A program made the position numbers and the translations under genes. DNA of 64,000 nt from an uncultured Alphaproteobacteria bacterium (lineage in GTDB: Bacteria; Pseudomonadota; Alphaproteobacteria; RF32; CAG-239), in assembly GCA_944391395.1 (NCBI GenBank), contig CALXTI010000002.1, forward strand, positions 1 to 64,000, given 5' to 3'. The notes beneath the pieces are model-generated. The model was not told where the DNA came from and made no database searches. It worked only from the letters and a program-made list of their open reading frames with translations. Of this stretch, positions 10,279 through 28,864 are shown in pieces; within the stretch, counting starts at the first letter, position 1, and every line of letters begins with the position of its first letter.

Positions 10279-11391
10279 ATGGCAGGCGGCAGGCACATAA
10301 AAAAAAACTTTCCGACACCCCGGCAAGAAAACGCGCTGGACGGAAATTATGCCGCCATTGACTTAGGCACAAACTCTTGTCGTCTGGTGATTGCAACACC
10401 GACAACAACCTCGTTTCATGTCGTGGAGACATTTTCCAAAATCACCCGTCTGGGCGAGGGAATTATCAACGATAACGAACTTTCAAAAGCCGCCATTCGC
10501 CGCACGGTAACGGCGTTAAAAGTGTGCCGCGGCGTTATAGACGAGTATGCGCCGATTGTCAAATCGCGTTTTGTGGCAACGGCGGCTTGCCGTCGGGCGA
10601 AAAACTGCAAAGAATTTGTTGATTTGGTTAAGAAAGAAGCCGGTATTGATTTGGAAATCATCTCTTCAAAAGAAGAATCCAGATTGGCGGTGGTCGGTTG
10701 TGTGCCGCTTTTGAACCGCAACATCAAAAGAATGTTGGTATTTGATATCGGCGGCGGGTCGACGGAAATTTCGCTGGCGCGTATTACCGACAGCGGCAAA
10801 ACGATTATTGAAGGGTTTGTTTCTCTGCCTTACGGCGTGGTTACGATTTCTGAAGCGTTCCCAAAAGACGATATGACCAGGCTTGCTTACACAACCATTA
10901 TGGAGCGCACGCAAAAACTTTTAACGGATTTTGATGAAGAGTTCGGTGTTTATGAAGGTATTAAAAATCAGGAAATACAAGTTATCGGAACTTCGGGAAC
11001 GGTAACGGTTTTGGGCGCGGTGCATCTTAATCTGCCGCGTTATAACCGTTCGGCCGTGGACGGTATTTCAATCTCGGGACCGGATTTGACCCGGGTGATT
11101 AACAAAATTAAAAATATCGGCGATGAGGGGCGGCGCAAACATCCGTGCATCGGCCCGCTGAAATCGGATTTAACAATTGCCGGATGCGCCATTATCGAAT
11201 CGTTGTTGACTTTTTGGCCCATTTCTGAAATAACCGTAGCCGACCGCGGCATCAGAGAGGGAATATTGCTGGATATGATGCATCATGAACGCCGGCAGGG
11301 ACGTCAACGCCGGCTACGCAATATTTATCATCGGCGTCGCCATTATGCCCGCAAAGACGGTCGCGCGGAAAAACATGTCAATTTAAATTAA
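10279..11391 (+). CDS. Ppx/GppA-family phosphatase (N-terminal actin-like domain) with an unusual polybasic C-terminal tail
   Basis: YAAIDLGTNSCRLVIA motif. Tail HHERRQGRQRRLRNIYHRRRHYARKDGR. Confidence 0.8.
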   Translation: MAGGRHIKKNFPTPRQENALDGNYAAIDLGTNSCRLVIATPTTTSFHVVETFSKITRLGEGIINDNELSKAAIRRTVTALKVCRGVIDEYAPIVKSRFVATAACRRAKNCKEFVDLVKKEAGIDLEIISSKEESRLAVVGCVPLLNRNIKRMLVFDIGGGSTEISLARITDSGKTIIEGFVSLPYGVVTISEAFPKDDMTRLAYTTIMERTQKLLTDFDEEFGVYEGIKNQEIQVIGTSGTVTVLGAVHLNLPRYNRSAVDGISISGPDLTRVINKIKNIGDEGRRKHPCIGPLKSDLTIAGCAIIESLLTFWPISEITVADRGIREGILLDMMHHERRQGRQRRLRNIYHRRRHYARKDGRAEKHVNLN

Positions 11392-11404: not shown

Positions 11405-12349
11405 ATGATTGAAAAAAAATATGCCGCCATAGATTTGGGAACGAATTCTTGTCGGTTGATGATTGCCGACGATAGCGGAAAATGTTTGTACCGCAATTCC
11501 ATTCCCACTAAATTAGGCGAAGGGCTTTATGCCGAAAAATGTTTTACGCCGGCGGCGGTTGAAAGAGGTTTGCAGGCGTTTGACGTCTATGCCGGCATCA
11601 TGAAAGAGTATGAGGTTGAAACTTATCGGGCTATTGCCACCGCTTCATGCCGGATGGCAAAAAACGGCGCGGATTTTGTGAAAAAAGTTGAAGAACGGAC
11701 GGGGATTAAGCTTGAAGTGATAGACGGCGTCGAAGAGGCGCGGTTGAATTTGAAAGGCGCATTGTTGAACGCTCCGACTTTTGCAAAATATGCCGTTGTT
11801 TATGATTTGGGCGGCGGGTCGACGGAAATTTCGCTGGCAACCAATGAAAACAATCCGCGGATTTTGCATACGGTTTCTGTTCCGTGGGGCGGACGCAACG
11901 CGGCGGAAGCTTTTGAGTTGGAAAGCTATAATCCGGAACGGACATGCCGTTTGGCCGGAGAAATAAAAAAATACGCCGATGATTTTGTTAGCAAGGCGCG
12001 TTTGACGGAATGCAAAAGCAAAAGCTGTCTGTTGGCAACTTCCAGCACGCCTTTGCGGTTGATTGCCCTGGCGGAACAATGGGAAAGTTACGACCGATTC
12101 AAGGCCGACGGCAAGACAATCTCATGTTCGGCGCTGGATGAAGCTGTTGAGCGTGTTTATCACATGAGCCCGGCGGAACGTTTGTCTTCGCCGTGCATCG
12201 GCGAAAATCGGGCGCCGATTTTTGTGGCGGCCTGTGTGATTTTTAAAACGATTTATGACGTTTTGGGTTTTGATGAACTGACGGCATCTTTAAAAAGCGC
12301 TCAAGACGGCATTATACGGGAGTTGATTGAAAATGGCAAAGCTGACTAA
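11405..12349 (+). CDS. Ppx/GppA-family phosphatase, a tandem paralog
   Basis: YAAIDLGTNSCRLMIADD and a second FDxGGGSTE motif. Confidence 0.8.
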   Translation: MIEKKYAAIDLGTNSCRLMIADDSGKCLYRNSIPTKLGEGLYAEKCFTPAAVERGLQAFDVYAGIMKEYEVETYRAIATASCRMAKNGADFVKKVEERTGIKLEVIDGVEEARLNLKGALLNAPTFAKYAVVYDLGGGSTEISLATNENNPRILHTVSVPWGGRNAAEAFELESYNPERTCRLAGEIKKYADDFVSKARLTECKSKSCLLATSSTPLRLIALAEQWESYDRFKADGKTISCSALDEAVERVYHMSPAERLSSPCIGENRAPIFVAACVIFKTIYDVLGFDELTASLKSAQDGIIRELIENGKAD

Positions 12350-13025
12350 ATCCGCCAAGTTGGTGCGCGGCAGAAAGAGTTTGACGGTTCGTGTCAAAAC
12401 CGCCAAATATCACAAGCCTTCGTCCAATCGTTGGTTGGAACGGCAGTTAAACGATCCGTATGTGGCCGAATCCAAACGTTTGGGTTATCGCTCGCGGGCG
12501 GCGTTTAAACTTATTCAATTAGATGAAAAATACAGGTTTTTGGGCAAAGGCAAAACGATTGTCGATTTGGGCTGCGCGCCTGGAGGATGGACGCAGGTGG
12601 CGGTTATGCGCAACAAAGGCAGCGGTCAGGTGGTCGGTATTGATATTTTAGAATGCGAGCCGGTGGAAGGGGCAAGTTTGATTTGTCAGGATTTTACCGC
12701 TGTCGACGCACCGGACAAGTTGAAGGCTCTGCTAAACGGTCCGGCTGATATTGTGATGAGCGACATGGCTGCCAACACGACCGGACACCAGCAGACCGAT
12801 CATTTGCGGACGATTGCCCTGGTTGAAGCGGCTTATCAATTTGCCAAAGAAGTGTTGGCCGAAGGAGGCATCTTTATTGCCAAAGTTTTTCAGGGCGGCG
12901 CCGAAAGCGGACTTTTGGCGGATATGAAGAAAAATTTTGCTAAAGTGTCGCATTTTAAGCCGGATGCCAGCCGGCAAGGGTCGCCGGAAACTTATGTGGT
13001 GGCGCAAGGATTTCGCGGAAATTAA
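12333..13025 (+). CDS. rlmE: 23S rRNA (uridine-2'-O)-methyltransferase RlmE/FtsJ with an alphaproteobacterial-type N-terminal extension
   Basis: RSRAAFKLIQLDEKYRFL...VDLGCAPGGWTQV plus N-terminus RKSLTVRVKTAKYHKPSSNRWLERQLNDPYV. The ORF-track start at 12327 is a TTG. ATG at 12333 is preferred. Confidence 0.85.
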   Translation: MAKLTKSAKLVRGRKSLTVRVKTAKYHKPSSNRWLERQLNDPYVAESKRLGYRSRAAFKLIQLDEKYRFLGKGKTIVDLGCAPGGWTQVAVMRNKGSGQVVGIDILECEPVEGASLICQDFTAVDAPDKLKALLNGPADIVMSDMAANTTGHQQTDHLRTIALVEAAYQFAKEVLAEGGIFIAKVFQGGAESGLLADMKKNFAKVSHFKPDASRQGSPETYVVAQGFRGN

Positions 13026-13087
13026 TTACCGCTTGACAAATGTACAAAAATAGCGTAAATTGTTCTTGAATAAAATATTTTTTAGAT

Positions 13088-13708
13088 ATGAAAAATTGTA
13101 TTATAGGAACGTTTAACGTTCCGGAAGAATTGACAGCCCGCCTGAAGGGGTTGAGTGAGCTCAACCCGTATGATTTTGTATCACAAATGTTTTGTGGTAC
13201 GGAAGAAAAGGGCATCCGCCTCAACAATGGAGGAAATGAAGTGATGCTTGATAAGAATAAAGCCTTTTACGGAAAAATTCTTATCGAGCCGGAATTTTTC
13301 CACAGCTTGCCGGCGGTGGAGCAAAAGCTTCACGGCGTGGAGGCTTTTATCATCAGCGGGACGCTGGTAGCCTCTAAAGAAAGGGTCTATGCGCTTTATA
13401 GGCCGTTTGAGGAGAAAATTTCGGTTATCGTAGAGAAATACGTGATACCGGAAGAAATCTCATATCGTCTTTTCAGACGGGTACGCTGTGTCCTTAGTGA
13501 AGACGGGGAGGGAAACCTCAAGCTCGAAATCATCAGGGTTTATAGCCTGATGCAAGATGGGCTTGGTCTGAAAGCCAAGCGGGACGAGGTTGTCGTTCGC
13601 AAATCTAAAGACGGCGCCATCGTCAAAGAGAAAAAATGGCTGTATAAACCGATGCATTTTGCAACTCGGGCGTATCCGGAAGTTGGCGAATATATCGGGA
13701 AGATATAA
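13088..13708 (+). CDS. Hypothetical protein, paralog 1 of a tandem three-gene uncharacterised family
   Basis: Shares a Y-x-P-F/L-x-E ... Y-V-I/F-P motif with the next two ORFs. Confidence 0.5.
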   Translation: MKNCIIGTFNVPEELTARLKGLSELNPYDFVSQMFCGTEEKGIRLNNGGNEVMLDKNKAFYGKILIEPEFFHSLPAVEQKLHGVEAFIISGTLVASKERVYALYRPFEEKISVIVEKYVIPEEISYRLFRRVRCVLSEDGEGNLKLEIIRVYSLMQDGLGLKAKRDEVVVRKSKDGAIVKEKKWLYKPMHFATRAYPEVGEYIGKI

Positions 13709-13723
13709 CCGTTGACGTTGAAA

Positions 13724-13757
13724 AAAAGGGGGAAAGCAAAAGCTTTCCCCCTTTTTT
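13724..13757 (+). terminator. Rho-independent terminator (aaggggga-aagcaaaagc-tttccccctt followed by TTTTTT)
   Basis: Perfect GC-rich stem with a T-run, seen directly. Confidence 0.65.
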
Positions 13758-14402
13758 ATGAACCATATTGACAAAAAAATGATTTGGTATAATATGACCA
13801 TAAAATTAAATTATTCAGATATGGATATACGTAGAATACAATTACCAAATGAAGTTCGCCTCCGTCTGGAAGGTCGAAAGGAAATGGATGCTTTGTATAT
13901 TGCCGGCTTAATCAAGCAGTATTGCAAAGAATATCTGTGCATTTCAAAAGGTTTTTTTGGCGAAATGTCGGTAAAAACCGAGTTTTATCGTCTGGTTCCG
14001 GAAAAACTTCGTTATCTGGAAAAACAACCGGGTTTTGTTTTTGTCGGGCAGGGTTCTGCTCCTGAAATTGCTTTTTACGTGCCGTTTGCCGAGTATGTTT
14101 ATTTTGTGCCGACGGATTATGTCGATACAAAAGTCGCTAAAAGTTCATTTTTACATTCACAAAGAGTGATGTATGAGCTAAAATCGACTTATTACGGCAG
14201 AGTGTGTGTGAAGGCTAACAGAGTTTTTTGCATCAGAAAAAAAGGCCTAAAAGCTATTTATGATGTGTTGATTGCGCATCATGTTACAACAGAAGAAATT
14301 CTCAAAAGAGAATTTTTTGAGCCGATGTATTTTGTAAAAGAGGATTATCTGAGTTGTTATGCGGAAGATTTTCCTTGTCATTGCGTCAGGAATTATGAAT
14401 AA
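13758..14402 (+). CDS. Hypothetical protein, paralog 2. The start is ambiguous: a TTGACA...TGgTATAAT promoter-like element sits at 13768-13793, inside the annotated 5' end.
   Basis: ORF of 214 aa carrying the family motif FYVPFAEYVYFVPTDY. Confidence 0.5.
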   Translation: MNHIDKKMIWYNMTIKLNYSDMDIRRIQLPNEVRLRLEGRKEMDALYIAGLIKQYCKEYLCISKGFFGEMSVKTEFYRLVPEKLRYLEKQPGFVFVGQGSAPEIAFYVPFAEYVYFVPTDYVDTKVAKSSFLHSQRVMYELKSTYYGRVCVKANRVFCIRKKGLKAIYDVLIAHHVTTEEILKREFFEPMYFVKEDYLSCYAEDFPCHCVRNYE

Positions 14403-14470
14403 TGTTGACAAAATGAACAAAACAGGGCAATATAATGCAGACAATATAAAAATATGTTAATTATTTAGTT

Positions 14471-15076
14471 ATGAAAGTAGAAAAAATAAAATTAACGGGC
14501 ATCGCCCGCAGAATGTGGGGCTACAAAATCCTAACACCGTCAACTGTCGGCAAGTTTGTTGAAAGTCATAAACTCGCTTTGGATCGCAGCCGTCGGGTTG
14601 TTTTTGATGCGTTCGGGCGTTTTGCATCCGTTCACATTTGCCCGGAGACGTACCAGCTGCTGGGTGAAGATATCAGAGCGATGCATGGTCGCGTCGGCTT
14701 TGTTTATCACGCCTGGATACAGTATTGTGCCGACGGAAAATGGCTGACAGACTGGGAGAATGATTTTCTGCTCTATTATGAACCGCTGACGGAAGAGGCT
14801 TATGTCTTTCCGAAACGGGTGGCGGAACTTAAAACCGTTCACGCCTGGTGGCGTTTGAAAAACAAACAAGTTGAATATCCCTTGTTTGAAAAGGACGGTG
14901 TTAAAATCAGCCGCAGTTTTCTTGTCAGAGGAAACTTGTTGTGCGCCTATCGGGACGTGGCTTCTTATCAGCCTCAGGAAAATGTCTGGCAGTGGAAGTA
15001 TTTTCCGCCGCTGCACTTTGTCTATGCGAAAGTGCCGACCCTCAAAGAACTTGAGGCCATGGCGCCGGAAGCATAA
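14471..15076 (+). CDS. Hypothetical protein, paralog 3
   Basis: Family motif LLYYEPLTEEAYVFP. Same strand and spacing as the other two paralogs. Confidence 0.5.
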   Translation: MKVEKIKLTGIARRMWGYKILTPSTVGKFVESHKLALDRSRRVVFDAFGRFASVHICPETYQLLGEDIRAMHGRVGFVYHAWIQYCADGKWLTDWENDFLLYYEPLTEEAYVFPKRVAELKTVHAWWRLKNKQVEYPLFEKDGVKISRSFLVRGNLLCAYRDVASYQPQENVWQWKYFPPLHFVYAKVPTLKELEAMAPEA

Positions 15077-15091
15077 GTCGAAACTTAAAAG

Positions 15092-15124
15092 AAAGGAGCT
15101 TGTTTTTAAGCTCCTTTTTTGTTG
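15092..15124 (+). terminator. Rho-independent terminator (aaaggagcttg-ttttt-aagctccttt followed by TTTTGTT)
   Basis: Seen directly. Confidence 0.6.
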
Positions 15125-15174
15125 CGTTTTTTTGTAAATCATATAAAATTTCTGTTTTGAAAGGGAAATAAAAT

Positions 15175-16386
15175 ATGCAAATCAGCGCGCGTTATCAGGC
15201 GGTTTTTGAAATATTGAGCGAGGTATTTAAAGATGAAAGGCCGGCAGATCATATCATCAACGACTATGTCCGCAAACGAAAATACATCGGTTCCAAAGAC
15301 CGGCGCTTTATCATTGATGCGGTATGGAACATTATCCGCCGGCGTTTAAGGCTTGCTTTTGAAACCCAAAGCCATGACGCGCGGCAGATTTTGCTGACGT
15401 ATTTGCAAGACGAGGATTTTGACCTTGTCGCCGACGGTTCGGAATACGGTTTGGCGGCGTTGAACAAAGAAGAAAAAGCACGGCTTAAAAACTTGACAGA
15501 TGACAAAGTTTATCCGAATTATGTTGAAGATGAATGTCCGAAATGGCTTTATGAAAAAATAAACAATCCGGCTTTGGTGCAAAGTTTGAACCAAACCGCG
15601 CCGGCGGATTTGCGGGTGAATATGGCGGACAGGCAAATGATAAAAAACCGTTTGCAAGGCGAGGGGTTGTTTTTTTCTATAACGCCTTATTCGCCGTTCG
15701 GTCTGCGGTCGGAAGAACGGATAAATCTTAATAATTGCATGAGCTATCAGGAAGGGCTGATTGAAGTACAAGACGAGGCTTCGCAACTGGCGGCGTTTTT
15801 ATGTTCGGTAACACCTGACGAAAAGGTGGTGGATTATTGCGCCGGAGCCGGCGGCAAAAGCCTGGCCATTGCCGCGTATAACCGCAACGAAGGCGTGATT
15901 TATGCGCACGATGCCGATTGGAACCGCATGGATGCGATTAAAGAACGGGCGGCGCGGCTCGGTATTCGCAATATCAGGTTGTTGAAAAATGTTGAAGACA
16001 CGGATTATGATTGCTTTATTTTGGACGCGCCGTGTTCGGGCAGCGGGACATGGCGGCGGTCGCCGGATGCCAAGTTTCGCTTAACGCCGGAAAAATTGCA
16101 AGATTTGAATAATGTGCAGGCTGAGATTTTGGAAACGGCTTATTGCCATACCAAAAAAGGCGGGCGGATTGTTTATATGACCTGTTCGGTCTTAAAAGAT
16201 GAAAATGAAAATATGGTTGAAGCATTTGCCGCACGGCATGCGGATTTGATGTTCGCCGACCATGCGGCGTTGTGGCAAAAGCGGTTGGATATGCCGTATC
16301 CGTTTCATGAAAAAAGATTTATCAGATTTTCGCCGCTTGCCACCAACACGGACGGTTTTTTCTTTTGCATGATGCGCAAAGCCTGA
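15175..16386 (+). CDS. RsmB/Sun-family (NOL1/NOP2) rRNA cytosine-C5 methyltransferase
   Basis: VVDYCAGAGGKS and FILDAPCSGSGTWRR motifs. Confidence 0.8.
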   Translation: MQISARYQAVFEILSEVFKDERPADHIINDYVRKRKYIGSKDRRFIIDAVWNIIRRRLRLAFETQSHDARQILLTYLQDEDFDLVADGSEYGLAALNKEEKARLKNLTDDKVYPNYVEDECPKWLYEKINNPALVQSLNQTAPADLRVNMADRQMIKNRLQGEGLFFSITPYSPFGLRSEERINLNNCMSYQEGLIEVQDEASQLAAFLCSVTPDEKVVDYCAGAGGKSLAIAAYNRNEGVIYAHDADWNRMDAIKERAARLGIRNIRLLKNVEDTDYDCFILDAPCSGSGTWRRSPDAKFRLTPEKLQDLNNVQAEILETAYCHTKKGGRIVYMTCSVLKDENENMVEAFAARHADLMFADHAALWQKRLDMPYPFHEKRFIRFSPLATNTDGFFFCMMRKA

Positions 16387-16506: not shown

Positions 16507-17304
16507 ATGGCAAAAATTCATCCCTCGGCAGTAGTTGAAAATGGCGCGCAAATCGCTGATAGCGCGGAAATCGGTCCTTTTTGTTGGATTAGCTCGCGGG
16601 CAAAAATCGGCGAGAATGTTAAGTTGTTGGCGCGTGTCAGCGTGATGGGAAACACCACCATCGGTGAGGGGACAATCGTGTTTCCGGGGGCTTGTCTGGG
16701 CGGCGGGCCACAGGATCACGGCAATGAATTTCAGGAAGAAGCCAAGTTGATTATCGGCAAGCACAATATCATTCGCGAAAACGTGACAATGCAATGCGGC
16801 ACGCCGAAAGAACACTTTACCACCACGGTGGGCGACAACGGCATGTTTATGGTCAACTCGCACGTGGCGCATGACTGCGTGGTCGGCAACAATGTGATTA
16901 TGACCAACAACGCGGTTATCGGCGGTCATGTCCGTTTGGGCGACGGGGTTATCATCGGCGGCAACTCTGCCGTGCACCAATTCTGCCGAATCGGCCGCAA
17001 AGCGATGATTGGCGGTATGAGCGGCGTGGCGCGCGACGTTATTCCGTTCGGCATGGTAACCGGCGACCGTGGCAAATTGCGCGGATTAAACGTTATCGGC
17101 TTAAAGCGTAGCGGTATTGACGAATCGGCGGTTAAGGCGGTTACACGTGCTTATATGTTTTTGTTTAAGGGCAAAAACGGCACGTTTGAAGAGCGTCTGG
17201 CCGAAGCCCGTGAAAAATATAAAGACAATGAAATGATTATGGAACAAATCAGGTTTATTGATGAGGCTCTGGAAAGCCGGCGCAATTTGATGACGGCGGA
17301 ATAA
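16507..17304 (+). CDS. lpxA: Acyl-ACP:UDP-GlcNAc O-acyltransferase LpxA. It stands alone, with no adjacent fabZ or lpxB.
   Basis: Left-handed beta-helix hexapeptide repeats. The KIHPSAVVENGAQI N-terminus is typical of LpxA, as is the C-terminal helical domain. Confidence 0.9.
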   Translation: MAKIHPSAVVENGAQIADSAEIGPFCWISSRAKIGENVKLLARVSVMGNTTIGEGTIVFPGACLGGGPQDHGNEFQEEAKLIIGKHNIIRENVTMQCGTPKEHFTTTVGDNGMFMVNSHVAHDCVVGNNVIMTNNAVIGGHVRLGDGVIIGGNSAVHQFCRIGRKAMIGGMSGVARDVIPFGMVTGDRGKLRGLNVIGLKRSGIDESAVKAVTRAYMFLFKGKNGTFEERLAEAREKYKDNEMIMEQIRFIDEALESRRNLMTAE

Positions 17305-17332
17305 AACCCAAAACATCGTTTTAAGGAAACAA

Positions 17333-17368
17333 ACACCTTGCATTGATGCTGATGCAAGGTGTTTTTTT
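17333..17368 (+). terminator. Rho-independent terminator after lpxA (acaccttgcat...atgcaaggtgt followed by TTTTTTTG)
   Basis: Seen directly. Confidence 0.6.
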
Positions 17369-17511
17369 GTGCTTTTTATATAACCGATTATGAACATTGC
17401 GGCATCGGTAATACAAAAGATAAAATAAAGGTTGCAATATCGTTTTATTTGAGTATTATTTTGTATATTTATAACCTATGTTTAAATTTAACACAATTCG
17501 GAAATTGTTCA

Positions 17512-18492
17512 ATGGCGCAGGTGTCCGTTATCATACCGGTTTACAATGTGGAAAAATATCTTTCGCGGTGTTTGGATTCATTGCTGGCGCAAACATTTAC
17601 CGATTTTGAAGTGATTTGCGTCAATGACGGTTCAACCGACGGCAGCGGGCAGGTTCTACAAACTTATGCCGAAAAAGACGCCCGGATAAAAATCATCACA
17701 CAAGAGAATCGCGGTGTTTCCGCGGCAAGAAACGTCGGTTTGCGGGCGGTTGATGCGCCTTACGTTTGTTTTGTCGATGCCGACGATTATGCGCATCCGG
17801 AGATGCTTTCCTGCCTGATTGAGGTGATGGAAAAGGTAAAAGCCGATATCGCCAATTGTCTGATTGTCAAAACAAGCGCCGAAGAGGTTGTTGCTTTTCA
17901 GCCGCTGCGAGCGGATAAAATCAAAACACGGGTGTTTGCCGATCCGTTGGAAGCATTTATGAAAAACCGGCGGATACAGACGGGTTCTTATGCCAGATTA
18001 TATAAAAAAGAAATTCTGTCCGGCATTCGATTTGAGCCGAACACCCGTTATGAGGACATTCCGTTTGCCGTGCAGGTGATGAACAAAGCCAAAAGTCTGG
18101 TGCTTGTGTATGCGCCGCTTTATGTCTATTACCAACATTCGGAATCGTTTATTCATCAGCCTTTCAGCGAAGAAAAAGCGGCGGATTATTTTAAGGTGAT
18201 GCGCTTGGTGTGGGCGTATTGCCAACAGAATTGTCCGCAAAGGGCAGCGGATGTCAGGCGCTATATTTTAAACAGCCGGTTTAAGATGCTGACCAATCAG
18301 GCGGTACGGCGGCAGAAAGACAAAGCCGTGCAGCGGCGGATTTTTGCGCTTGTGCAGCAAACTGTCAAAGAAATGTATCAGGAAAAGATGCTGTCTTATG
18401 AGGGCTTAAAACTAAAACACAAAATCAGATTGTTTTTATTATTGCATTGTCGCACGCCGGAGCCATGCCGGGTGTGGTCAAATTTGATATAG
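17512..18492 (+). CDS. GT2-family glycosyltransferase
   Basis: VSVIIPVYNVEKYLSRCLDSLLAQTF...VICVNDGSTDGS...DADD motifs. The ORF-track start at 17359 is unlikely. ATG at 17512 gives the canonical N-terminus. Confidence 0.8.
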   Translation: MAQVSVIIPVYNVEKYLSRCLDSLLAQTFTDFEVICVNDGSTDGSGQVLQTYAEKDARIKIITQENRGVSAARNVGLRAVDAPYVCFVDADDYAHPEMLSCLIEVMEKVKADIANCLIVKTSAEEVVAFQPLRADKIKTRVFADPLEAFMKNRRIQTGSYARLYKKEILSGIRFEPNTRYEDIPFAVQVMNKAKSLVLVYAPLYVYYQHSESFIHQPFSEEKAADYFKVMRLVWAYCQQNCPQRAADVRRYILNSRFKMLTNQAVRRQKDKAVQRRIFALVQQTVKEMYQEKMLSYEGLKLKHKIRLFLLLHCRTPEPCRVWSNLI

Positions 18493-18503
18493 GAGAAAAT
18501 AAA

Positions 18504-18947
18504 ATGGCGACGTATTACATCGTAAGCGGCGGGTTTGACCCGATACACGAGGGACATATCGAGATGATAAAGGCCTCGGCTGAGGCTGGCGACGGTGTGA
18601 TTGTGCTGGCGAATTCAGACGCGTGGCTGTGCCGCAAGAAAGGCAAAAACTTTCATAACATGAAAACCCGCAAAGCGATTTTGGAAAACCTAAAAGGTGT
18701 TATCGACGTTTTGGAATTTAACGATGACGACAATTCGGCCTCGGATGGCATCCGTAAAGCACGGGCGAAATATCCCGATGCGCATTTGGTTTTTGCCAAC
18801 GGGGGCGACCGAGGCAAAGACAACATTCCGGAAATTCCGGCATGTCAGGAATGTCATGTTGATTTGGCATTCGGCGTCGGCGGCGAAAACAAGGCCAATT
18901 CTTCTTCCTGGATTTTGGAAAGGTGGCACAGCTTTGAAGCGGCGTAA
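18504..18947 (+). CDS. Cytidylyltransferase-like nucleotidyltransferase (HIGH-motif family). Small, about 148 aa.
   Basis: YYIVSGGFDPIHEGHIEMI N-terminus with a GGAGAAAATAAA ribosome-binding site. Confidence 0.65.
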   Translation: MATYYIVSGGFDPIHEGHIEMIKASAEAGDGVIVLANSDAWLCRKKGKNFHNMKTRKAILENLKGVIDVLEFNDDDNSASDGIRKARAKYPDAHLVFANGGDRGKDNIPEIPACQECHVDLAFGVGGENKANSSSWILERWHSFEAA

Positions 18948-18966
18948 GCTGAAATTGTTGTTTGAC

Positions 18967-20142
18967 ATGGAGCAACTGGCGGTTTCCGACGGCCGCGGCA
19001 CGGGCATTGCGCGCGTGGCGGCGGCGTTGTTGCACGGCCTCAAGGATTGTGCCGAAATTGAGCTTTTTCCGCTGGTAACTTCAACGCGCGGCGATGCGGC
19101 GGCTTATCTTGAGCGTGCCGGGTTTCAGGATTTGGCAAAAAAACTTGTTTATATGCCTTTTTTACGCAAAACCTGCAAATGGGATAATTGGTATAAAGCT
19201 TTGGTTTCAAAATTTTTAAGCGCTTGCTGCCGTTTGAAATACGGCAAAGCGCTTAAAACTTATGACGCGTATTTGTCGGTGTTCAGTCCGGTTTCGCCCG
19301 TGGTTTATGCAAGCGGGCTTAAGACATTTGCCTTTGTGCATGATTTGATTCCGATAAATCACCCCGAATTTTGCGATGCCAAGTTTGCGCGGAAGTATCG
19401 GCAATGGCTGGAACATCTGGCGGCAGATCAGGTGTTTGTCATTTCCGAATCGACGAAAAAGGATTTGCTCTCGTTCCGGCCGGATATGAAAGCAGATAAG
19501 ATTAAGGTGGTTTATTTGGGAGCAGATGCGACGTTCCGGCCGGTTACGGACGCGGCGGCGATATCCGCCGTGCGGGCAAAATACGGCATTCGGACGGAAA
19601 AATACATTCTGGCGGTGTCGGAGATTTCGCCGCGCAAAAATTTCGGGCATTTGCTGGAGGCGTTTGTCGCTTTTGCCGAACGGCTGAGGAAAGAAAAAAT
19701 TTCGTTGGTGCTGGCAGGACCGGTGCGGGAAGGTTTTTCTGCCGTGGCAGAAAAAATTAAAAATTTGAAAAAATATCAAGACATGATGGTGCAGACCGGA
19801 TTTGTCAATGACGCGGATATGCCGGCGCTTTACGGCGGGGCGGAAGTTTTTGTTTATCCGAGTTTGTATGAAGGATTTGGCTTGCCGGTTCTGGAGGCGA
19901 TGCAATGCGGCGTTCCGGTGATATGTGCCGAGAACAGCTCGCTGCCGGAAGTGGGCGGCAAAGCGGCGTGTTATGTCAGCGGCCGCGATGTAGGGGAAAC
20001 GGCTGACGCTTTGTATGAAATCTGCTCAAACGATGCTTTTCGGGCGGAATTGAAACAAAAATCCGTTCGTCAGGCGCAAAAGTTCGGCTGGCAGAAGTTT
20101 AATGAAAATGTGATAAAAACGATTTTGGAGACTATAAAATGA
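18967..20142 (+). CDS. GT4-family glycosyltransferase. An alternative TTG start at 18934 would overlap the upstream gene.
   Basis: C-terminal [20 protein letters not shown]4 motif and an N-terminal LLFDMEQL. Confidence 0.75.
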
Positions 20143-21215
20143 CAAAACAAAAAATTGCAATGATATCGGGTATCACCGGCCAGGACGGCTCCTATTTGGC
20201 AGAACTTTTGTTAGAAAAGGGCTATGAGGTTCATGGACTTGTTCGACGCAGTTCTTTATATAATGTTTCGCGTATTGAACACATTGTTGACAGATTATAT
20301 TTGCATTATGCGGATTTAACAGATTCCGTTAACCTGGTTCGACTGGTCAAAGAAATTGAACCGGACGAAATTTATAACCTCGGAGCTCAATCACATGTAA
20401 AAATTTCGTGGGATTGTCCGGAATTTACGGCAGAAACAGATGCATTAGGGACGCTGCGGTTGCTGGAAGCAATCCGGATTAACGGATTGGAGAAAAAAAC
20501 TCGTTTTTATCAAGCATCCACTTCAGAATTGTTCGGACTTATTCAGGAGCCGGTTCAATCTGAGAAAACGCCGTTTTATCCGCGTTCGCCTTATGGCGTG
20601 GCAAAGCTTTACGGCTATTGGATTACGGTCAATTATCGCGAAAGTTTCGGCATGTTTGCCTGCAACGGCATTTTGTTTAATCACGAAAGTCCCCGCCGCG
20701 GTGAAAATTTTGTTACCCGTAAAATTACTTTAGCCGCGACGCGTATTAAAGAAGGATTGCAGGATTGTTTGTATCTTGGCAACTTGGATGCCAAGCGTGA
20801 TTGGGGGCATGCCAAAGATTATGTTGAAGGAATGTGGCGGATGTTGCAGGCCGATAAGCCGGAAGATTATGTTCTGGCAACAGGAACAACGACTTCTATT
20901 CGTGATTTTGTTAATATGGTTTTTGATGAGTTGGGTATTGAACTTGAATGGCAAGGAAAAGGCGTGGATGAAAAAGCAATCGATAAAGAAACGGGGAAAG
21001 TCATTGTTGCCGTCAGTCCGGAGTTCTTCCGCCCGGCGGAAGTGGAACTCCTGCTCGGAGATTCAACAAAAGCCAAGACGAAACTTGGTTGGAAACCTCA
21101 ATATGATTTAAAAGCTTTGGCAAGAGAAATGGTCGCCGAAGATTTGAAATTGGCTCAAAAGGAAAAAATCCTTAAAGCTAACGGCTTTGAAATCAATACT
21201 AACTATATTGCCTAA
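20139..21215 (+). CDS. gmd: GDP-mannose 4,6-dehydratase
   Basis: [23 protein letters not shown] N-terminus ([28 protein letters not shown]) and overall Gmd sequence. Confidence 0.9.
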
Positions 21216-21226
21216 AGGATACAAGT

Positions 21227-23734
21227 ATGACAATTTGGATGGATTTGACAAATAGCTTAATGTCTTATAAGGGCAACGTCATCGGTATAATCCGAGCAGA
21301 ACTGATGCTTGCCAAAGAAATTCACAAGATAGATTCGCAAGTACGTTTTTCAATATGTACCAAGTATGGTCTTAAAGAAATTTCTCCCGATAAACTTGAT
21401 TGGCTGTGGCAAGCTGATGATTTGAACGATGCTTATCGAAAATTTCAAAATAAAAAGAAAACATTTATCGGAAAAGTTTCACAATATGTTACGCGTAAGA
21501 TTGATTCTCGTCTGTTTAGATTTTACAGAACAAAGAGAAATAAGTCCGTTTCGAAAAAAAGTTTTATTATATATCCGTATAAAAACGGTGATGTTGTTTT
21601 TTCGTGCGGTTGGTACGGAACAAAAAAGGAAGAATATTTTTCAAGGGTCTGCGCTCTTCTGCCATCGTTAAAACTGGTATATACCATATACGATTTATGT
21701 ATGGTTAAACCACAACTTCGTTATTTATATTATCCGCATGATATATATTTTGATCAATATTTGCTTTGGATTGTAAATAATTGTGATTATATAATTTACG
21801 GTGGCCACACGGCTCAGTCAGATGCTAGAGAATATTTTGGTAAGGCAAAATTAAACGCACCTGAAAGCGGATATGTGAAATGGGGCTGCGATATTAACCG
21901 GAAGAAGAAAAACGTTTCTGCCGAGCCAAAACAAGTGTTTGATAAATTCAATATATCCGTACCGTATGTTTTGGCTATCGGGTCGTTCGATTATAAAAAA
22001 TTGGCTGTCGGGTCGTTCGATTATAAAAAAAATTATGAAGTTTTATATCAAGCTTATTGTATGCTGAACCTGGCAAAAAAAGAAAATGTTCCGCAATTGG
22101 TTATTGTCGGGCGTTTTATTAAAGATGTTGAACAAAATTTACAAAATGCATTTCAGCAAAATCCGCTTGTCGAAAAGTGTGTTAAGATTGTCAGCTGCAG
22201 CGATGAAGAACTGGATGTTTTATATAAAAACTGTTTGTTTACCGTTTTGCCGACACTTTATGAAGGTTGGAGCTTAACACTTCCGGAAAGTTTGAGTTAC
22301 GGGAAATTGTGCTTGTGTTCAGATGTGGCTCCGTTGCGTGAAGCTGCCGGAGATTTGGCAGTATACGTAGATCCCAAACATCCTAAAGAATGGGCGGAAA
22401 ATATTATAAAATACAGCAAGAATAAAAATCTTTTGGCTGAACGTGAAAATTTGATTAGAAAAAATTGGAAGCCGGTTTTATGGAAAGACAGTGCTCAATC
22501 ATTATATAAAAAACTTGTTAAAATTGCGAAAACAAACAATTCTCACTTATATTACGAATTGGGATTGTTTCACATGCAAGGGGGTTTGTCGGGAATTCCT
22601 CGGACGCAGTTGATTTTGGCAAGACAATTATACAAAATAAATAAAAATATTACATTTTTCTTTATGAGCAAAGGACGATATTATGAATATTCTCATAAAC
22701 AGTTAAAACATCTATTGGGTCAAGAGCGCATTGATTTGGCATTGTCTTTGGATCAACAGGCTTATCGTATTTCTTTGCCGGAAGATATTCCGTTTAAGAA
22801 AGGCGATGTTGTTTTATCGGTAGGTATCGGTTATGATAAAAAATCATATGAAGCTTTGGCAGCAAAACATAAAGCTGCCGGCTTTAAGTATATTCAGTTA
22901 ATTTATGATTTTACCCCGATTACGGTACCGCATACGCATCCGCAAGAAAGAGTTAAAGCGTACCCAGATTTTCTAAATAAAATGTATACTTTATCTGATT
23001 TTGTTTTGTATGGCGGAAAAACGGCACAAAAAGACGGTTTAGAGTATCAGAAAAAAAACGGATTTGATGTTAAACCATCTGCGGCAGTCAAGTTCGGTTC
23101 TGATTTGGTTTCGTTAAAAACAACCAAGGAGCGTAAAGAAAAAGTCTTTGAAAAATATGGAATTACGGGTGAGTTTTTGTTGACTGTCGGAACAATAGAA
23201 GCGCGTAAAAATCATGCGTTGTTATATGAAGCTTATATTGAATTGATGCGTGATGAAAAATTTTCTGATAAGCTTCCTCAATTGGTGATATGCGGGCATC
23301 CCGGTTGGCGGACAGAGCATTTTCGACATGTTTTGTCAGTTGATACAAGGATTTTCAATAAAGTTATCATGATATCGCCTTCGGATGATGAACTTGATGT
23401 GTTATATCAGACTTGTAAATTTACATTGTTGGCAAGTCTTTATGAAGGATGGAGTTTGACGCTTCCGGAAAGTTTAAACTACGGAAAATTCTGTCTGGCA
23501 GCGGATACGCCATCTTTGACGGAAATCGGTGAGGATATTATTGATTATGCTAATCCGTATGATCCGTATGATTGGGCGGAAAAAATTCGATATTATGTAA
23601 CAACCCCGAAAGCTTTGTCTCAAAAGGAACGAGCTATAAAGCAGAAATGGGTGAATACGACATGGCAACAATGTGGTGAAAATATTAATCACATTATTTA
23701 TGACTTTTTACAAAAGGAAAAGAGCAATGACTAA
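21227..23734 (+). CDS. Two-domain GT4 glycosyltransferase (WbdA/WbpX-like candidate polymerising transferase, 835 aa)
   Basis: Two copies of the GT4 C-terminal signature (YEGWSLTLPESLSYGK and YEGWSLTLPESLNYGK). Confidence 0.75.
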   Translation: MTIWMDLTNSLMSYKGNVIGIIRAELMLAKEIHKIDSQVRFSICTKYGLKEISPDKLDWLWQADDLNDAYRKFQNKKKTFIGKVSQYVTRKIDSRLFRFYRTKRNKSVSKKSFIIYPYKNGDVVFSCGWYGTKKEEYFSRVCALLPSLKLVYTIYDLCMVKPQLRYLYYPHDIYFDQYLLWIVNNCDYIIYGGHTAQSDAREYFGKAKLNAPESGYVKWGCDINRKKKNVSAEPKQVFDKFNISVPYVLAIGSFDYKKLAVGSFDYKKNYEVLYQAYCMLNLAKKENVPQLVIVGRFIKDVEQNLQNAFQQNPLVEKCVKIVSCSDEELDVLYKNCLFTVLPTLYEGWSLTLPESLSYGKLCLCSDVAPLREAAGDLAVYVDPKHPKEWAENIIKYSKNKNLLAERENLIRKNWKPVLWKDSAQSLYKKLVKIAKTNNSHLYYELGLFHMQGGLSGIPRTQLILARQLYKINKNITFFFMSKGRYYEYSHKQLKHLLGQERIDLALSLDQQAYRISLPEDIPFKKGDVVLSVGIGYDKKSYEALAAKHKAAGFKYIQLIYDFTPITVPHTHPQERVKAYPDFLNKMYTLSDFVLYGGKTAQKDGLEYQKKNGFDVKPSAAVKFGSDLVSLKTTKERKEKVFEKYGITGEFLLTVGTIEARKNHALLYEAYIELMRDEKFSDKLPQLVICGHPGWRTEHFRHVLSVDTRIFNKVIMISPSDDELDVLYQTCKFTLLASLYEGWSLTLPESLNYGKFCLAADTPSLTEIGEDIIDYANPYDPYDWAEKIRYYVTTPKALSQKERAIKQKWVNTTWQQCGENINHIIYDFLQKEKSND
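21971..22030 (+). repeat. Perfect in-frame tandem duplication, 2 x 30 bp with 1 mismatch, inside the two-domain GT gene (AIGSFDYKKL / AVGSFDYKKN)
   Basis: ttggct[a/g]tcgggtcgttcgattataaaaaa appears twice in direct succession. Confidence 0.8.
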
Positions 23735-24641
23735 GGTGTTTGTTACAGGCGCCGGCGGATTTGTCGGTCGACAAATTATAAAAGAGTTGGCATCGTCAGG
23801 TGTTGACATTATGGCAATGGATAAATCCGACAGACTGGATAACATTGAAGGAATAAAGCTTTGTAAGATAGATTTGTCGGAACGTGATAAGTTAAAAGAA
23901 AGTCTTGCGGATTTTAAGCCGGACAGCATTATACACCTGGCTGCGATTGCTTCACCCGTATATGACCGGATTGGTGAATTGTATGAGATAAATGTCCGGG
24001 GTTCAGAAAATTTGCTTGATGCTGTTAAAAATTCTTGTAAAGCGGGGACGAGGGTTATTCTTACCAGTACTGCCGGGGTATATGGCAATTCTGACAAAGA
24101 ATTTATATCGGAAGATACGGAATTTAATCCGCAAAATCATTATTCATATAGTAAAATGGTTATGGAGTATCTCTCCCGGTCGTATGCCGACGATCTTGAT
24201 ATCAGAATAATTCGTCCGTTTAATATCATTGGGTATGGTCAAAGAGATGATTTTTTAATTCCAAAACTTGTCAAGGCATATGCCTTACATCAGCCTGTCT
24301 TGCAAGTGGGAAATTTGGCGACGGCGCGTGATTATGTAGATATTTTTTTCGCGGCAAAAATCTTTTGTAAAATGGCTTTGGATGATAATGTTTCCGATAA
24401 ATTGCTAAATATCTGTTCAGGGTATGGAACAACAGGAAATGATGTTTTAAGAATGTTGGAACAAATAACCGACTTTCGACCTAAAATAGATGTTGCGGAC
24501 GCTTTTCTGAGGAAAAACGAAATTATGCGTCTGGTCGGTGATGCTTCCTTATGCAATCGTTTTATCGGCAATGATATTCGTCCAATGGTTATGTATGACA
24601 TTTTATATTCAATGATACAAGGATATAAAAATGGGAACTAA
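23727..24641 (+). CDS. NAD-dependent sugar-nucleotide reductase, Rmd-like (GDP-4-keto-6-deoxy-D-mannose reductase)
   Basis: VFVTGAGGFVGRQI Rossmann N-terminus, YxxxK catalytic motif and RPFNIIGYGQ, similar to Rmd. Adjacent to gmd. Confidence 0.7.
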   Translation: MTKVFVTGAGGFVGRQIIKELASSGVDIMAMDKSDRLDNIEGIKLCKIDLSERDKLKESLADFKPDSIIHLAAIASPVYDRIGELYEINVRGSENLLDAVKNSCKAGTRVILTSTAGVYGNSDKEFISEDTEFNPQNHYSYSKMVMEYLSRSYADDLDIRIIRPFNIIGYGQRDDFLIPKLVKAYALHQPVLQVGNLATARDYVDIFFAAKIFCKMALDDNVSDKLLNICSGYGTTGNDVLRMLEQITDFRPKIDVADAFLRKNEIMRLVGDASLCNRFIGNDIRPMVMYDILYSMIQGYKNGN

Positions 24642-25749
24642 TGGTATGAAGTTTAAAAAAGCATATAAAAAGATATTTATATTTGCCATTGTTTGTTTAT
24701 TGTTTTTACCAATGACGTATTTACTGGGGGTTAAAGATAAAACGGTTGTTTATGGTGTTGAGGCAGGTGAAAATTTGCCAAGCCTTCAGGCATCTTCTTT
24801 TGTCAGCCGCGAATTTCAAACGAAATTTGAAAGGTGGTGGAATACTCATTTTGGGTTTCGTAAGTTTATGCTTAAATCAAAAAATCAATTCTATGATTGG
24901 GCTAATTTCGGAAAGATGCATACGGGATATTTTAATAATATTATAGAAGGTAAAGATAAATATGTTTTTGGGCGGTATTTCTTTTATTCAATGGCAAAAA
25001 ATTGTCCGTCCGTACCATCCTTTTCAAAATTATTACAATTTTACGATATTGCTCGGCATAAAGGGATTGAACTTTATTTTATTGTTGCGCCGAGCAAAGT
25101 GGTGACTTATGCGGAATATTTGCCGTTTAGATATAAATATTTTCTCGGTCAAGATTGTCATTTAAATCAAAAAATAGCTGCAAATATTGCTAAGATTGGT
25201 ATTCCCGTATATGATTCCCAACCGATGATTAATTATATGCATTCGACAGACGGGCTTGAACCGTTTCCGATAGGGGGCATACACTGGAATTTATACAGCG
25301 CCGGTTGGACTTTGGTTGAAGCTGCTAAAACTTTTGGTTGGGGTAAAATAGAAATTACTAAAATGGAAAAACAAGATACGCCGTATTTTTCGGAACAGGA
25401 TTTAACTAATTTGATGAATTTGTTTATTAAAAAGAAAAATGATATTGCGTATTATAGGCCGATATTTTCTTCAGAATTTGTTTTTGACGGGCAGACCACC
25501 ATTATCGGAGACAGTTTCTCTCATGGCTTTAGATTGTCTGTCGAAAATGCGCATTTAATTGGCAAAGATGGTTTGTTGCACTATGAAAATGCTCCATTGT
25601 CAGATGCTGATGCAATAAAGGTGTTGAATTCAAAACGGATTATTTTTGTGTATACGGATAATATATATCAGTCGAATCATCAATTTTATAAAAAGCTTGA
25701 TGTTCTTATTAAAAATGCAGGTTATATTTCAGAGAGTGCCGCAAAATGA
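24631..25749 (+). CDS. Membrane-anchored hypothetical protein with weak AlgX/AlgJ-like (SGNH O-acetyltransferase-like) motifs
   Basis: N-terminal transmembrane segment, PSKVVTYAEYLP and GGIHWN segments. Low-confidence domain call. Confidence 0.4.
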   Translation: MGTNGMKFKKAYKKIFIFAIVCLLFLPMTYLLGVKDKTVVYGVEAGENLPSLQASSFVSREFQTKFERWWNTHFGFRKFMLKSKNQFYDWANFGKMHTGYFNNIIEGKDKYVFGRYFFYSMAKNCPSVPSFSKLLQFYDIARHKGIELYFIVAPSKVVTYAEYLPFRYKYFLGQDCHLNQKIAANIAKIGIPVYDSQPMINYMHSTDGLEPFPIGGIHWNLYSAGWTLVEAAKTFGWGKIEITKMEKQDTPYFSEQDLTNLMNLFIKKKNDIAYYRPIFSSEFVFDGQTTIIGDSFSHGFRLSVENAHLIGKDGLLHYENAPLSDADAIKVLNSKRIIFVYTDNIYQSNHQFYKKLDVLIKNAGYISESAAK

Positions 25750-26795: not shown

Positions 26796-27667
26796 AGATC
26801 TCCCCATCGTAAGTTATTGTAACGAAGGGATAGAGGTGCTGAAGCGACCATCAAACGCGATAAGCCTTTGCTTTTAATTTGTTTGTACCATACTCCCGAA
26901 GATTTTTTTGGCATAAAACCGTTAATCGAAAGTTGGAACTTAGGGTATAAATTCAAAATCGCAGATACGGAACCATGTAATAACGTTATCGGTATGCATT
27001 TAACCCTGATTGCTTATCAAGAATAAATATAGGGTTTCCGACCAATATAGACGCCATATCAAGTGATATAAAATATGGAAAATTATATAAGTGAAAATCA
27101 TTGTTTTTATAAGCCAAAACATATTCATCATGCAGGTGCTTGCAATATTGCAGAGACGGAAAATCTTTTGAAAATGCGGGGAGTTCTTTTTCGGTTTTTT
27201 TATGCAAAAATCCAAAGCACTAAACATCATTGTAAGTTGACATACTTTGCGGGGCGTCATATTACCGTAATTAGGCGTATGTGCATCATTAAAACACTCA
27301 TTTTCTGCCTTTCAATCAAAAACAGATGATCCGGTTTAGATATTATCATTGCAGATTGGATATGTTGCGATTGCTACTTTTTGTAAAATGTGTATTGTAT
27401 AATGTGTCTAGTATCATTGCAGACCGGATATTTGCAATCTTTTTATCTTTGGTACGCAGAAAAATCCAAATTTGTTTTTTGCGGTATATGGGAATGAGGT
27501 CGCAAGGAACGTTAACTACCAAGTAATATGAGCTTCCGCGATTGTATAAATGCATGAACAAGCCTCCGATGATTTAAGGCTAATTCCAATGAGATTTATT
27601 AGCAGAAGTTATTAGCAATTATTGATTTATAAAGAAAAAACCGCCAAAAATGACGGTTTGCATTCTG

Positions 27668-27742
27668 TGGCTGGGGTGGCTGGATTCGAACCAACGAATG
27701 TCGGCACCAAAAGCCGATGCCTTACCACTTGGCGACACCCCA
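27668..27742 (-). tRNA. tRNA-Gln (anticodon TTG)
   Basis: The reverse complement TGGGGTGTCGCCAAGTGGTAAGGC...GGTTCGAATCCAGCCACCCCAGCCA folds as a cloverleaf. Anticodon loop is TTTTGGT. Confidence 0.8.
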
Positions 27743-27826
27743 ATCTTTCAAGGCATGCGCTATATGTAGAATAAAAAAATATTAAATGCAAGAACTTTTT
27801 TTATCAGAGAATAATTTTTTTGCTTT

Positions 27827-28833: not shown

Positions 28834-28835
28834 AA

Positions 28836-28862: not shown

Positions 28863-28864
28863 AG

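Follow-up and report, generated by a model that had tools for sequence, protein, structure and literature searches.

Three adjacent genes between rlmE and rsmB, here called A, B and C, are very probably old paralogs of a single orphan family of soluble proteins of about 200 amino acids, which is found in one clade, occupies the slot directly upstream of rsmB and has been reduced by loss to one to three copies per lineage. They lie in the window, a stretch of 64,000 nucleotides from an uncultured alphaproteobacterium, and all are on the + strand. Gene A (positions 13088 to 13708) encodes 206 amino acids, gene B (13821 to 14402) 193 from its probable start and gene C (14471 to 15076) 201; they define the A-, B- and C-types of the family. 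The flanking genes, also on the + strand, were identified by Pfam as rlmE/ftsJ, encoding a 23S rRNA methyltransferase (12327 to 13025; PF01728 FtsJ, 6.9e-57), and rsmB, of the 16S rRNA m5C methyltransferase family (15175 to 16386; PF01189 RsmB/F, 2.9e-37).

The mechanically called open reading frame of gene B (13758 to 14402) is longer and would encode 214 amino acids. However, translation most likely starts at the ATG at 13821 (MDIRRIQLP...) and not at 13758, since the intervening 63 nt contain the T-tract of the terminator of A and a -35/-10 promoter-like pair, M22 of the longer B product aligns with M1 of both A and C, and a second gene caller gave a protein of 195 amino acids from the codon equivalent to the 13821 start.

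In the first-pass annotation the trio had been called tandem paralogs from inspection of the translations, and this was borne out: the open reading frames were recovered at 13088-13708, 13758-14402 and 14471-15076, and pairwise BLASTP gave 25% identity over 142 amino acids both for A and B (E = 2e-07) and for B and C (E = 2e-08). A and C did not match significantly by themselves (E = 0.11) and are connected via B and via the family profile. The first of two shared blocks picked out by eye (LYRPFEE../FYVPFAE../LYYEPLTEE..) proved to be correctly aligned; in the three-way alignment it holds an invariant Y-x-P-x-x-E, the Y and P of which are kept across the wider family. The second block does correspond to a homologous region, but its register was about ten residues off: 'FYGKILIEPEFF' in A pairs with 'FFGEMSVKTEFY' in B and not with 'FYRLVPEKLRY'. 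Invariant or near-invariant columns are G17, F77, Y103, P105, R148, L157, A159, D162, P180 and F183. Protein lengths, core residues and promoter and terminator anatomy are kept down to about 20 to 30% identity. Internal duplication was rejected as an origin: when the three thirds of the sequence (N-terminal, middle and C-terminal) were compared pairwise in hhalign, no probability exceeded 0.4%.

Neither A, B and C nor 17 to 20 diverse members had a credible match in Pfam, NCBIfam, PHROGs or PADLOC. No Pfam family was matched by any of 17 members at E up to 0.1, and PHROGs returned only isolated matches (E of 0.0024 or weaker). Against PADLOC-DB, two single-member matches were obtained for 20 members (E = 0.011 and 0.06) and none for A, B or C. 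A profile search of PDB sequences gave no match at E up to 10 and a fold search placed the family with no known structure, so the earlier observation that the proteins carry no recognisable domain holds for curated libraries, PDB sequences and folds alike. Two profile searches yielded 13 to 15 matches among 5.8 billion clusters, and an exhaustive HMMER scan yielded 12 clusters among 1.84 billion representatives, one of them spurious; none of the matches for which such information is given has a name or a Pfam domain. P0020 (1229 amino acids, 22 matched stretches) was discarded as a spurious relative because it is a low-complexity repeat protein. By these searches the family is an orphan confined to one clade of uncultured Alphaproteobacteria. 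Its novelty consists only in the fact that it could not be placed in any known family.

The hosts are metagenome-assembled genomes of uncultured Alphaproteobacteria, in which the family occurs in a handful of lineages. In every family locus with readable flanks the downstream neighbour is rsmB, with a C-type gene directly upstream of it, and C orthologs or relatives were found in every related locus fetched, the genome scan for family members having been run with a C-type alignment. The upstream neighbour is rlmE in most related loci, except L008 (GlyRS and a HAD-like gene) and L016 (a response regulator). Comparison with related genomes, as had been recommended, showed the slot upstream of rsmB to be filled in every related lineage examined, with one copy (L008, L009, L016, L017 and L025), two (L001-7, L010-15 and L018/19) or three (L020-23, as in the window). 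Orthologs of A show 60 to 99% identity. The closest distant relative of B, P0017 (31 to 33% identity), is encoded by the first of the two family genes in L014. One member in L018 is shortened to 167 amino acids.

The first-pass description of a lineage-specific expanded family between rlmE and rsmB is supported, with the nuance that the trio does not look like a recent insertion or expansion in this genome. A neighbour-joining tree and an identity table suggest that A, B and C are old subtypes, differentially lost. One genome with an RsmB of only 72% identity carries both a B-type and a C-type gene, so the types would be older than the lineages; the window has simply kept all three. As the same slot is filled across lineages whose RsmB is only 68 to 72% identical, the family appears to have been inherited vertically in a fixed place, with lineage-specific loss leaving one, two or three copies.

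Comparison of orthologous loci shows that the family diverges far faster than its neighbours. Relative to L001, RlmE is 97%, RsmB 94% and CcrM 88% identical, whereas A is 61% and C 63.5% identical. Relative to L014, RlmE (90.5%) and LpxA (87.5%) are conserved and B and C have fallen to 31% and 30%, while hyp190, another local orphan, is still 49% identical. Nucleotide identity between species is 87 to 92% for rlmE, 87 to 96% for rsmB and 78 to 83% for the background, against 46 to 79% for the middle of the locus. Within the species, B and C are 99 to 100% conserved (100% amino acid identity between strains for B), and gene A is the sole strong hotspot of divergence between strains (78 to 95% nucleotide identity versus 98.5 to 99.3% overall), its alleles forming a recombination mosaic. 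The ratio dN/dS was 0.10 to 0.38 overall (reported also as about 0.1 to 0.4), 0.18 to 0.38 for A and 0.10 to 0.27 for C, values that are limited by the few substitutions within the species and by saturated dS (above 1) between species. They clearly point to purifying selection, and are two to five times those of the neighbouring genes. No segment had a value above 1, and the fast divergence could thus reflect relaxed constraint instead of an arms race.

Structure prediction, also suggested at the outset, gave high-confidence AF2 models for C (pLDDT 89.2, pTM 0.84) and A (pLDDT 81.0, pTM 0.77), with secondary-structure elements in identical order, and the fold search assigned neither to a known fold. 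Judged by these models and by dN/dS, the family proteins are real and folded; they are mixed alpha/beta, mostly beta. If the models are right, they represent a compact alpha/beta architecture of about 200 amino acids with no full-length counterpart among solved structures. A membrane or secreted location was dismissed for want of a hydrophobic segment: the highest 19-residue Kyte-Doolittle mean was 1.30 or less and no signal peptide-like N-terminus was seen in the proteins examined, which are predicted to be soluble and cytoplasmic. The pI of members ranges from 4.9 to 9.2, and hence there is no uniform electrostatic signature. No catalytic-looking residue is invariant, and the proteins may lack enzymatic activity.

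Our best guess, offered with low confidence, is that these are soluble, non-enzymatic recognition proteins engaged in a fast-evolving interaction. A fixed slot, fast divergence and a mosaic member form the pattern expected of such proteins. As binding modules they would co-evolve rapidly with a partner, which could be an invading genetic element or some other molecule that varies between strains. In A, specificity may be set by the variable N-terminal stretch of about 120 residues, and the C-terminal half, which is conserved and rich in beta structure (R148, A159, D162, P180 and F183 in C numbering), may serve as a common scaffold. A conflict-type role is what we infer beyond this. The fuller version, in which an unseen fold acts as a stand-alone recognition protein in genetic conflict, the three subtypes have different targets and the N-terminal half of A determines specificity, is doubtful; examples would be a single-gene sensor or excluder of phages or mobile elements, or a marker of strain self and non-self. 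Speaking against a conflict role, B and C are essentially invariant within the species, no relative turned up in viral, phage or plasmid sequences, the family is not adjoined by any gene for defence or a toxin, and neither the content nor the position of the slot shows the type of variation found in defence islands.

Capsule and O-antigen loci and defence-island hotspots are known for a pattern in which conserved flanks enclose variable genes and, by recombining homologously, allow these to be exchanged. The family locus resembles these in its similar flanks (rlmE and rsmB), hyperdivergent middle, mosaic A gene and varying copy number. It differs in that a single protein family is always found in the slot in place of changing systems, and in having no known defence, surface-structure or mobility gene. 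Membership of the defence proteins in PADLOC-DB was not found, and the neighbours are housekeeping genes.

Besides recognition, other roles can be considered. The proteins might assist ribosome biogenesis or rRNA modification as lineage-specific accessory factors, binding rRNA, pre-30S particles or RsmB, in which case the link with rsmB would be functional; we regard this as unlikely. Small transcription regulators, with an N-terminal winged-helix-like module (predicted beta-alpha-alpha-beta-beta, residues 4 to 56 of C) binding DNA and a C-terminal beta domain sensing a signal or oligomerising, are a rather improbable reading. The comparison would be with LexA/CI, DtxR or MerR/excisionase-type proteins. 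LexA and phage CI-type repressors, proteins of about 200 amino acids that join a winged helix to a C-terminal S24 beta domain, are among the closest known systems, as are SH3-like small beta-barrels (KOW, Sm/Hfq and the DtxR C-terminal domain). A LexA/CI-like S24 repressor was rejected: neither PF01726 nor PF00717 was matched by A, B, C or 17 members, the family profile aligned to the LexA profile in hhalign with a probability of 0.1% (E = 0.6), neither Ser nor Lys is among the conserved columns, as the S24 Ser-Lys catalytic dyad would demand, and a structural match to the S24 beta domain was sought and not found. Likewise, a five-stranded barrel with a significant structural match and KOW/Sm motifs was not seen. 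NTF2-like, SnoaL-like and ketosteroid-isomerase-fold proteins (for example PDB 3en8, 4kvh and 3dxo) also rank among the closest known systems, and R148 and D162 could line a pocket on a curved beta-sheet in distant relatives of NTF2/SnoaL that bind small molecules or act as enzymes. This reading is quite improbable. No Pfam NTF2-clan family was matched by any of 17 members (E up to 0.1).

Two further explanations were considered. Dispensable, weakly constrained genes, in which divergence, copy loss and allele mosaics merely reflect near-neutral evolution, would account for a dN/dS two to five times that of the neighbours yet never above 1, for repeated loss to one to three copies per lineage and for the shortened member in L018. 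This is nevertheless improbable, since no lineage with readable flanks lacks an intact copy in the slot, protein length, core residues and promoter and terminator anatomy persist even at about 20 to 30% identity, dN/dS of 0.10 to 0.38 indicates purifying selection, the models are predicted to fold with high confidence and B and C hardly vary within the species. It is largely refuted, and very improbable, that the genes were left behind or carried in between two housekeeping genes by a mobile element or prophage, or that they are immunity genes orphaned from a polymorphic toxin system. It is true that tandem, fast-evolving, unannotated genes for about 200 amino acids with promoters of their own resemble immunity-gene arrays or prophage 'moron' genes, and that for B the G+C content is low (0.34 to 0.38, with 0.38 in gene B of the window). 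However, the block is not bordered by repeats, no gene for an integrase, a transposase or a toxin adjoins it, and no tRNA gene lies within 11 kb. No relative of A, B or the C-type profile was found among IMG/VR viral contigs, tblastn with C retrieved nothing from GenBank phages or PLSDB plasmids, and PHROGs, PADLOC and the Pfam Imm families gave no credible match for A, B, C or 17 to 20 members. In all loci, a setting downstream of Rhs, CdiA or a T6SS effector was lacking, and occupation of the same chromosomal slot where RsmB is only 68 to 72% identical argues for vertical inheritance.

The family of candidate recognition proteins is so restricted that 15 billion public proteins contain only about a dozen clusters of it at 50% identity. 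A fixed slot with one to three old subtypes, several-fold faster divergence and one mosaic member is unusual in a housekeeping neighbourhood, and with it the family offers a defined target for tests in poorly known bacteria. Its practical importance is modest for now, given that its hosts are uncultured and that metagenome-derived genomes commonly contain orphan families of such a size.

Each family gene looks like its own transcription unit, putatively expressed from a promoter with a TTGACA-type -35 and usually with its own terminator. In a consensus scan the site of A (13033 to 13061, + strand) was TTGACA-17-TAAATT (10/12 matches), and that of B (13768 to 13795, +) TTGACA-16-TAATAT, with an alternative -10 TATAAT at 13788-13793. 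The B site is part of a 21-nt direct repeat common to the region upstream of C. The site of C (14405 to 14436, +; TTGACA and TATAAT, matching TTGACAAAA) lies directly 3' of the stop codon of B and, having a long spacer (20 nt), is the weakest of the three predicted promoters; an equivalent element precedes the C-type genes in L001 and L009. Of the family genes inspected in related loci, all except one are preceded by a TTGACA(A)AA -35-like element in the corresponding position. A family-specific promoter motif was rejected, as TTGACAAAA occurs in total no more often than expected by chance and also lies upstream of two genes of the window that are unrelated to the family.

Strong terminators had been described around the trio, and this is correct after A and after C but not for the gaps between rlmE and A and between B and C, where none was found in the window. 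The intrinsic hairpin after A (13722 to 13757, +) has a perfect 16-bp stem (100% complementary), a 4-nt loop and a T-tract, and is kept after A in L001. That after C (15089 to 15120, +) is bidirectional in a scan of both strands and separates C from rsmB; in each of the related loci inspected, the last family gene is likewise followed by a corresponding hairpin. Independent promoter-like sites and terminators occur in every species inspected. Rfam revealed no structured RNA at the locus, its matches in the window being three tRNAs, all elsewhere. An antisense open reading frame (14540-15142) was discounted as a gene, having no family match and no conservation in L008. The leaders of the family genes are AT-rich, about 45 to 60 nt long and have no Shine-Dalgarno sequence; rsmB, placed beyond the terminator of C, has its own (AAAGGAAA).

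The three consecutive orphan genes A, B and C, which encode proteins of ~200 aa, belong to a real, clade-restricted paralogous family of folded, soluble proteins that occupies a fixed slot, varies in copy number and shows accelerated divergence. Gene A (13088-13708, 206 aa), gene B (13758-14402, 214 aa as a mechanical ORF, with a probable start at ATG 13821) and gene C (14471-15076, 201 aa) follow one another on the + strand in the mechanical ORF list, exactly where the first-pass annotation had placed them. They are bracketed by ORFs of 232 and 403 aa, which match FtsJ/RlmE (PF01728, 6.9e-57) and RsmB/F (PF01189, 2.9e-37), as expected from the description of the flanks as rRNA-methyltransferase genes. 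The three had also been called paralogs, and pairwise BLASTP bears this out for A with B (E=2e-07) and B with C (E=2e-08), both at 25% identity over 142 residues. The direct match of A to C has E=0.11, and these two are linked through B and through a profile of all three sequences, which retrieves orthologs of all three types (E 1e-39 to 1e-82). The first sequence block reported as shared is in the correct register and holds an invariant Y-x-P-x-x-E in the three-way alignment, of which Y and P are still conserved family-wide; the second lies in a homologous region, with its register off by about 10 residues.

The family has an extremely narrow distribution. Querying 5.8 billion clusters with B in a word-indexed search returned a single copy (98% identical), and the three-sequence profile matched 13 proteins. 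When 1.84 billion representatives were scanned exhaustively by HMMER with a 16-sequence profile, 12 clusters matched, one of which (P0020) is a spurious repeat protein and was rejected as a member; a 20-sequence profile added only two members to the earlier matches. These counts uphold the proposal that the family is lineage-specific. Where such information is given, none of the matches is named or has a Pfam domain. The C-type gene was found in three species-representative genomes, each an 'uncultured Alphaproteobacteria bacterium'. CcrM is typical of Alphaproteobacteria, and the CcrM-like methyltransferase with a RAMA domain that adjoins the locus is consistent with the alphaproteobacterial assignment.

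In every related locus with readable flanks, the family lies directly upstream of rsmB. The slot holds A, B and C in strains of the window species (L020-L023), A-type and C-type genes in L001-L007, a B-like and a C-like gene (P0017 and P0016) in L010-L015, two divergent members in L018/19 and one family gene in L009, L025/26 and L017. The triplet is thus kept among strains of the window species and gives way to one or two genes in the other loci. The upstream neighbour is usually rlmE; L008 has a HAD-like and a glycyl-tRNA-synthetase-like gene there, and L016 a response regulator. An HMM search of six-frame ORFs from the window and part of the related loci found no members outside the slot. 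A-types, B-types and C-types group separately in an identity table and in a neighbour-joining tree, which is only indicative at such divergence. The B-type group consists of window B and the first gene of L014 (33% identity), and identity in the C-type group falls to 28-30%. Gene order agrees with the tree, the C type always being last and adjoining rsmB, which suggests that the three types are old, that the window has kept all three and that differential loss has occurred. The first-pass annotation spoke of an inserted, expanded family; a recent insertion or expansion is not supported, given such old subtypes in the same slot.

Compared with L001, amino acid identity to the window is 97% for RlmE, 94% for RsmB, 89% for Ppx1 and 88% for CcrM, against 61% for A and 63.5% for C. 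For L014 it is 90.5% (RlmE), 87.5% (LpxA), 72% (RsmB) and 49% (hyp190, another local orphan protein), against 31% for B and 30% for C, and for L017 86% (RlmE) against ≤ 24% for family genes. Nucleotide identity between species is 87-92% for rlmE, 87-96% for rsmB, 78-83% for the background and 46-79% for family genes, rising to 88% over the final ~140 nt of A. Nei-Gojobori dN/dS, for which counts are small within species and dS is saturated between species, was 0.18-0.38 for A, 0.10-0.27 for C and roughly 0-0.17 for neighbours; this identifies A and C as coding genes under purifying selection, more relaxed than that on their neighbours.

Within the species, on a background of 98.5-99.3% nucleotide identity across 12.8-14.6 kb, the only strong divergence hotspot is gene A (78-95% nucleotide identity), with edges at the gene borders (13069-13744 for the window versus L020 and L021). 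A shares 81.6% amino acid identity with its L020 allele, with dS of 0.21 versus ≤ 0.09 in the flanks. This family member has recombining alleles: the L021 allele is identical to that of the window in codons 1-120 and to that of L020 in codons 120-206. Scanned in 40-codon windows, the A alleles nowhere had pN/pS > 1. Similar flanks, a hyperdivergent middle and a mosaic A show recombination inside and around the locus, with divergent A alleles retained. Between the window and L001, dS is 0.56 for rlmE (12333-13025) and 0.24 for rsmB (15175-16386) versus 1.2-1.5 for surrounding genes, which suggests that recombination tracts exchanged between species lie in the flanks.

From their sequence signals, A, B and C each look like a separate transcription unit. 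On the + strand, A has a promoter-like site (13033-13061, TTGACA-17-TAAATT) and a hairpin after it (13722-13757, perfect 16-bp stem and T-tract), B has TTGACA at 13768 with a -10-like TAATAT/TATAAT, and C has TTGACA at 14405 and TATAAT at 14431, with rsmB lying beyond a hairpin terminator (15089-15120). ATG 13758 immediately adjoins the T-tract of A's terminator, the first 63 nt of B's mechanical ORF contain its promoter-like elements, M22 (ATG 13821, MDIRRIQLP...) lines up with M1 of A and C, and another gene caller starts a 195-aa protein at the equivalent codon in L022 and L023; the true start of B is, on these grounds, most probably 13821. In other inspected species, a TTGACA(A)AA -35 precedes every family gene but the second one of L018, the leaders are AT-rich, ~45-60 nt long and lack a Shine-Dalgarno sequence, and a terminator usually follows the gene; this -35 motif also occurs elsewhere and is not specific to the family. 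Unlike family genes, rsmB has a Shine-Dalgarno sequence (AAAGGAAA). Leaders in the window (13062-13087, 13796-13820 and 14437-14470) are AT-rich and lack one, those of A and B sharing ...AGATATG, which hints at a different translation-initiation mode or low translation efficiency. A 21-nt direct repeat (TTATGAAYMATRTTGACAAAA; 13756-13776 and 14393-14413, 86% identical) lies at the 5' end of each of these two units (B and C), includes their -35-like elements and may be a remnant of the tandemly duplicated unit. No tRNA genes, Rfam matches or repeats were found at the borders of the A/B/C block. An antisense ORF without a Pfam match (14540-15142, - strand, 200 aa) fully overlaps gene C; L009 has an antisense ORF of 162 aa, and L008 has none of at least 120 aa. 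The ORF in the window is probably a side effect of codon usage.

Modelling by AlphaFold2 from the family alignment was confident for both C (pLDDT 89.2, pTM 0.84) and A (pLDDT 81.0, pTM 0.77), and the two models have a common order of elements: a strand, two helices, a beta-hairpin, two short helices, a run of strands (nine in C and eight in A, four of them long) and, at the C-terminus, further helices. Foldseek against BFVD gave no match at E ≤ 0.001, and the best structural matches of the A and C models disagree, so the fold is treated as unplaced, with a partial resemblance of the models to the NTF2-like sheet. Comparisons with LexA/S24 repressors, PADLOC defence proteins, polymorphic-toxin immunity proteins, phage or plasmid families and SH3-like RNA binders gave no support for membership. 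The family is new only insofar as these comparisons and searches assigned it to no known family or fold, in line with the earlier remark that no domain was recognizable. A LexA-like reading was rejected (profile-profile probability 0.1%; Ser-Lys dyad not conserved). No internal duplication was detectable in the family proteins, and hydrophobic segments and signal-peptide-like N-termini are absent from all members (top 19-residue Kyte-Doolittle mean 1.30). The conserved columns (G17, F77, Y103, P105, R148, L157, A159, D162, P180 and F183) are mostly hydrophobic or structural, which argues against a conventional active site.

We infer that each gene is expressed independently and that the proteins are non-enzymatic. 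Our preferred reading, held tentatively and at less than even chance, is that they serve as recognition or binding proteins in an interaction that evolves fast, in which the N-terminal half of A would be the variable specificity region. Invariant adjacency to rsmB would suit an accessory factor linked to rsmB or the ribosome, but separate transcription units, fast evolution and barrel matches at noise level make this doubtful. A winged-helix regulator is less probable than that; the topology of the models would be compatible, but sequence and structure comparisons did not confirm it. Near-neutral, dispensable genes rank below both, and a ligand binder of NTF2-like type is lower still. That these genes are mobile-element or immunity cargo is highly improbable, being largely refuted by viral, phage and plasmid searches and by the housekeeping flanks. 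Uncultured bacteria commonly carry orphan families; this one goes beyond a routine 'hypothetical protein' because its confident models have no full-length PDB match and because its fixed slot with apparently old subtypes is accompanied by a within-species mosaic of A.

After rsmB, the window (16507-33414) has an lpxA-like acyltransferase gene and then about 16 kb of ORFs, which correspond to glycosyltransferase and sugar-nucleotide genes in related loci; lexA (32758-33414, - strand) closes this stretch. The gene directly after rsmB is lexA in L001-L006, and the lpxA-like gene follows rsmB in L008, L009, L014 and L017. The A/B/C locus thus adjoins a variable island of polysaccharide type. The hyp190 gene (8484-9056, 190 aa) has no Pfam family and is conserved in related loci, with 49-73% identity and dN/dS of ~0.1; some of these loci have an extra unannotated 310-aa gene after it, absent from the window. 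Two tandem Ppx/GppA-family paralogs (10279-11391 and 11405-12349, ~33% identical) stay paired in every related locus, and the second evolves faster (55-76% versus 83-90% identity between species).
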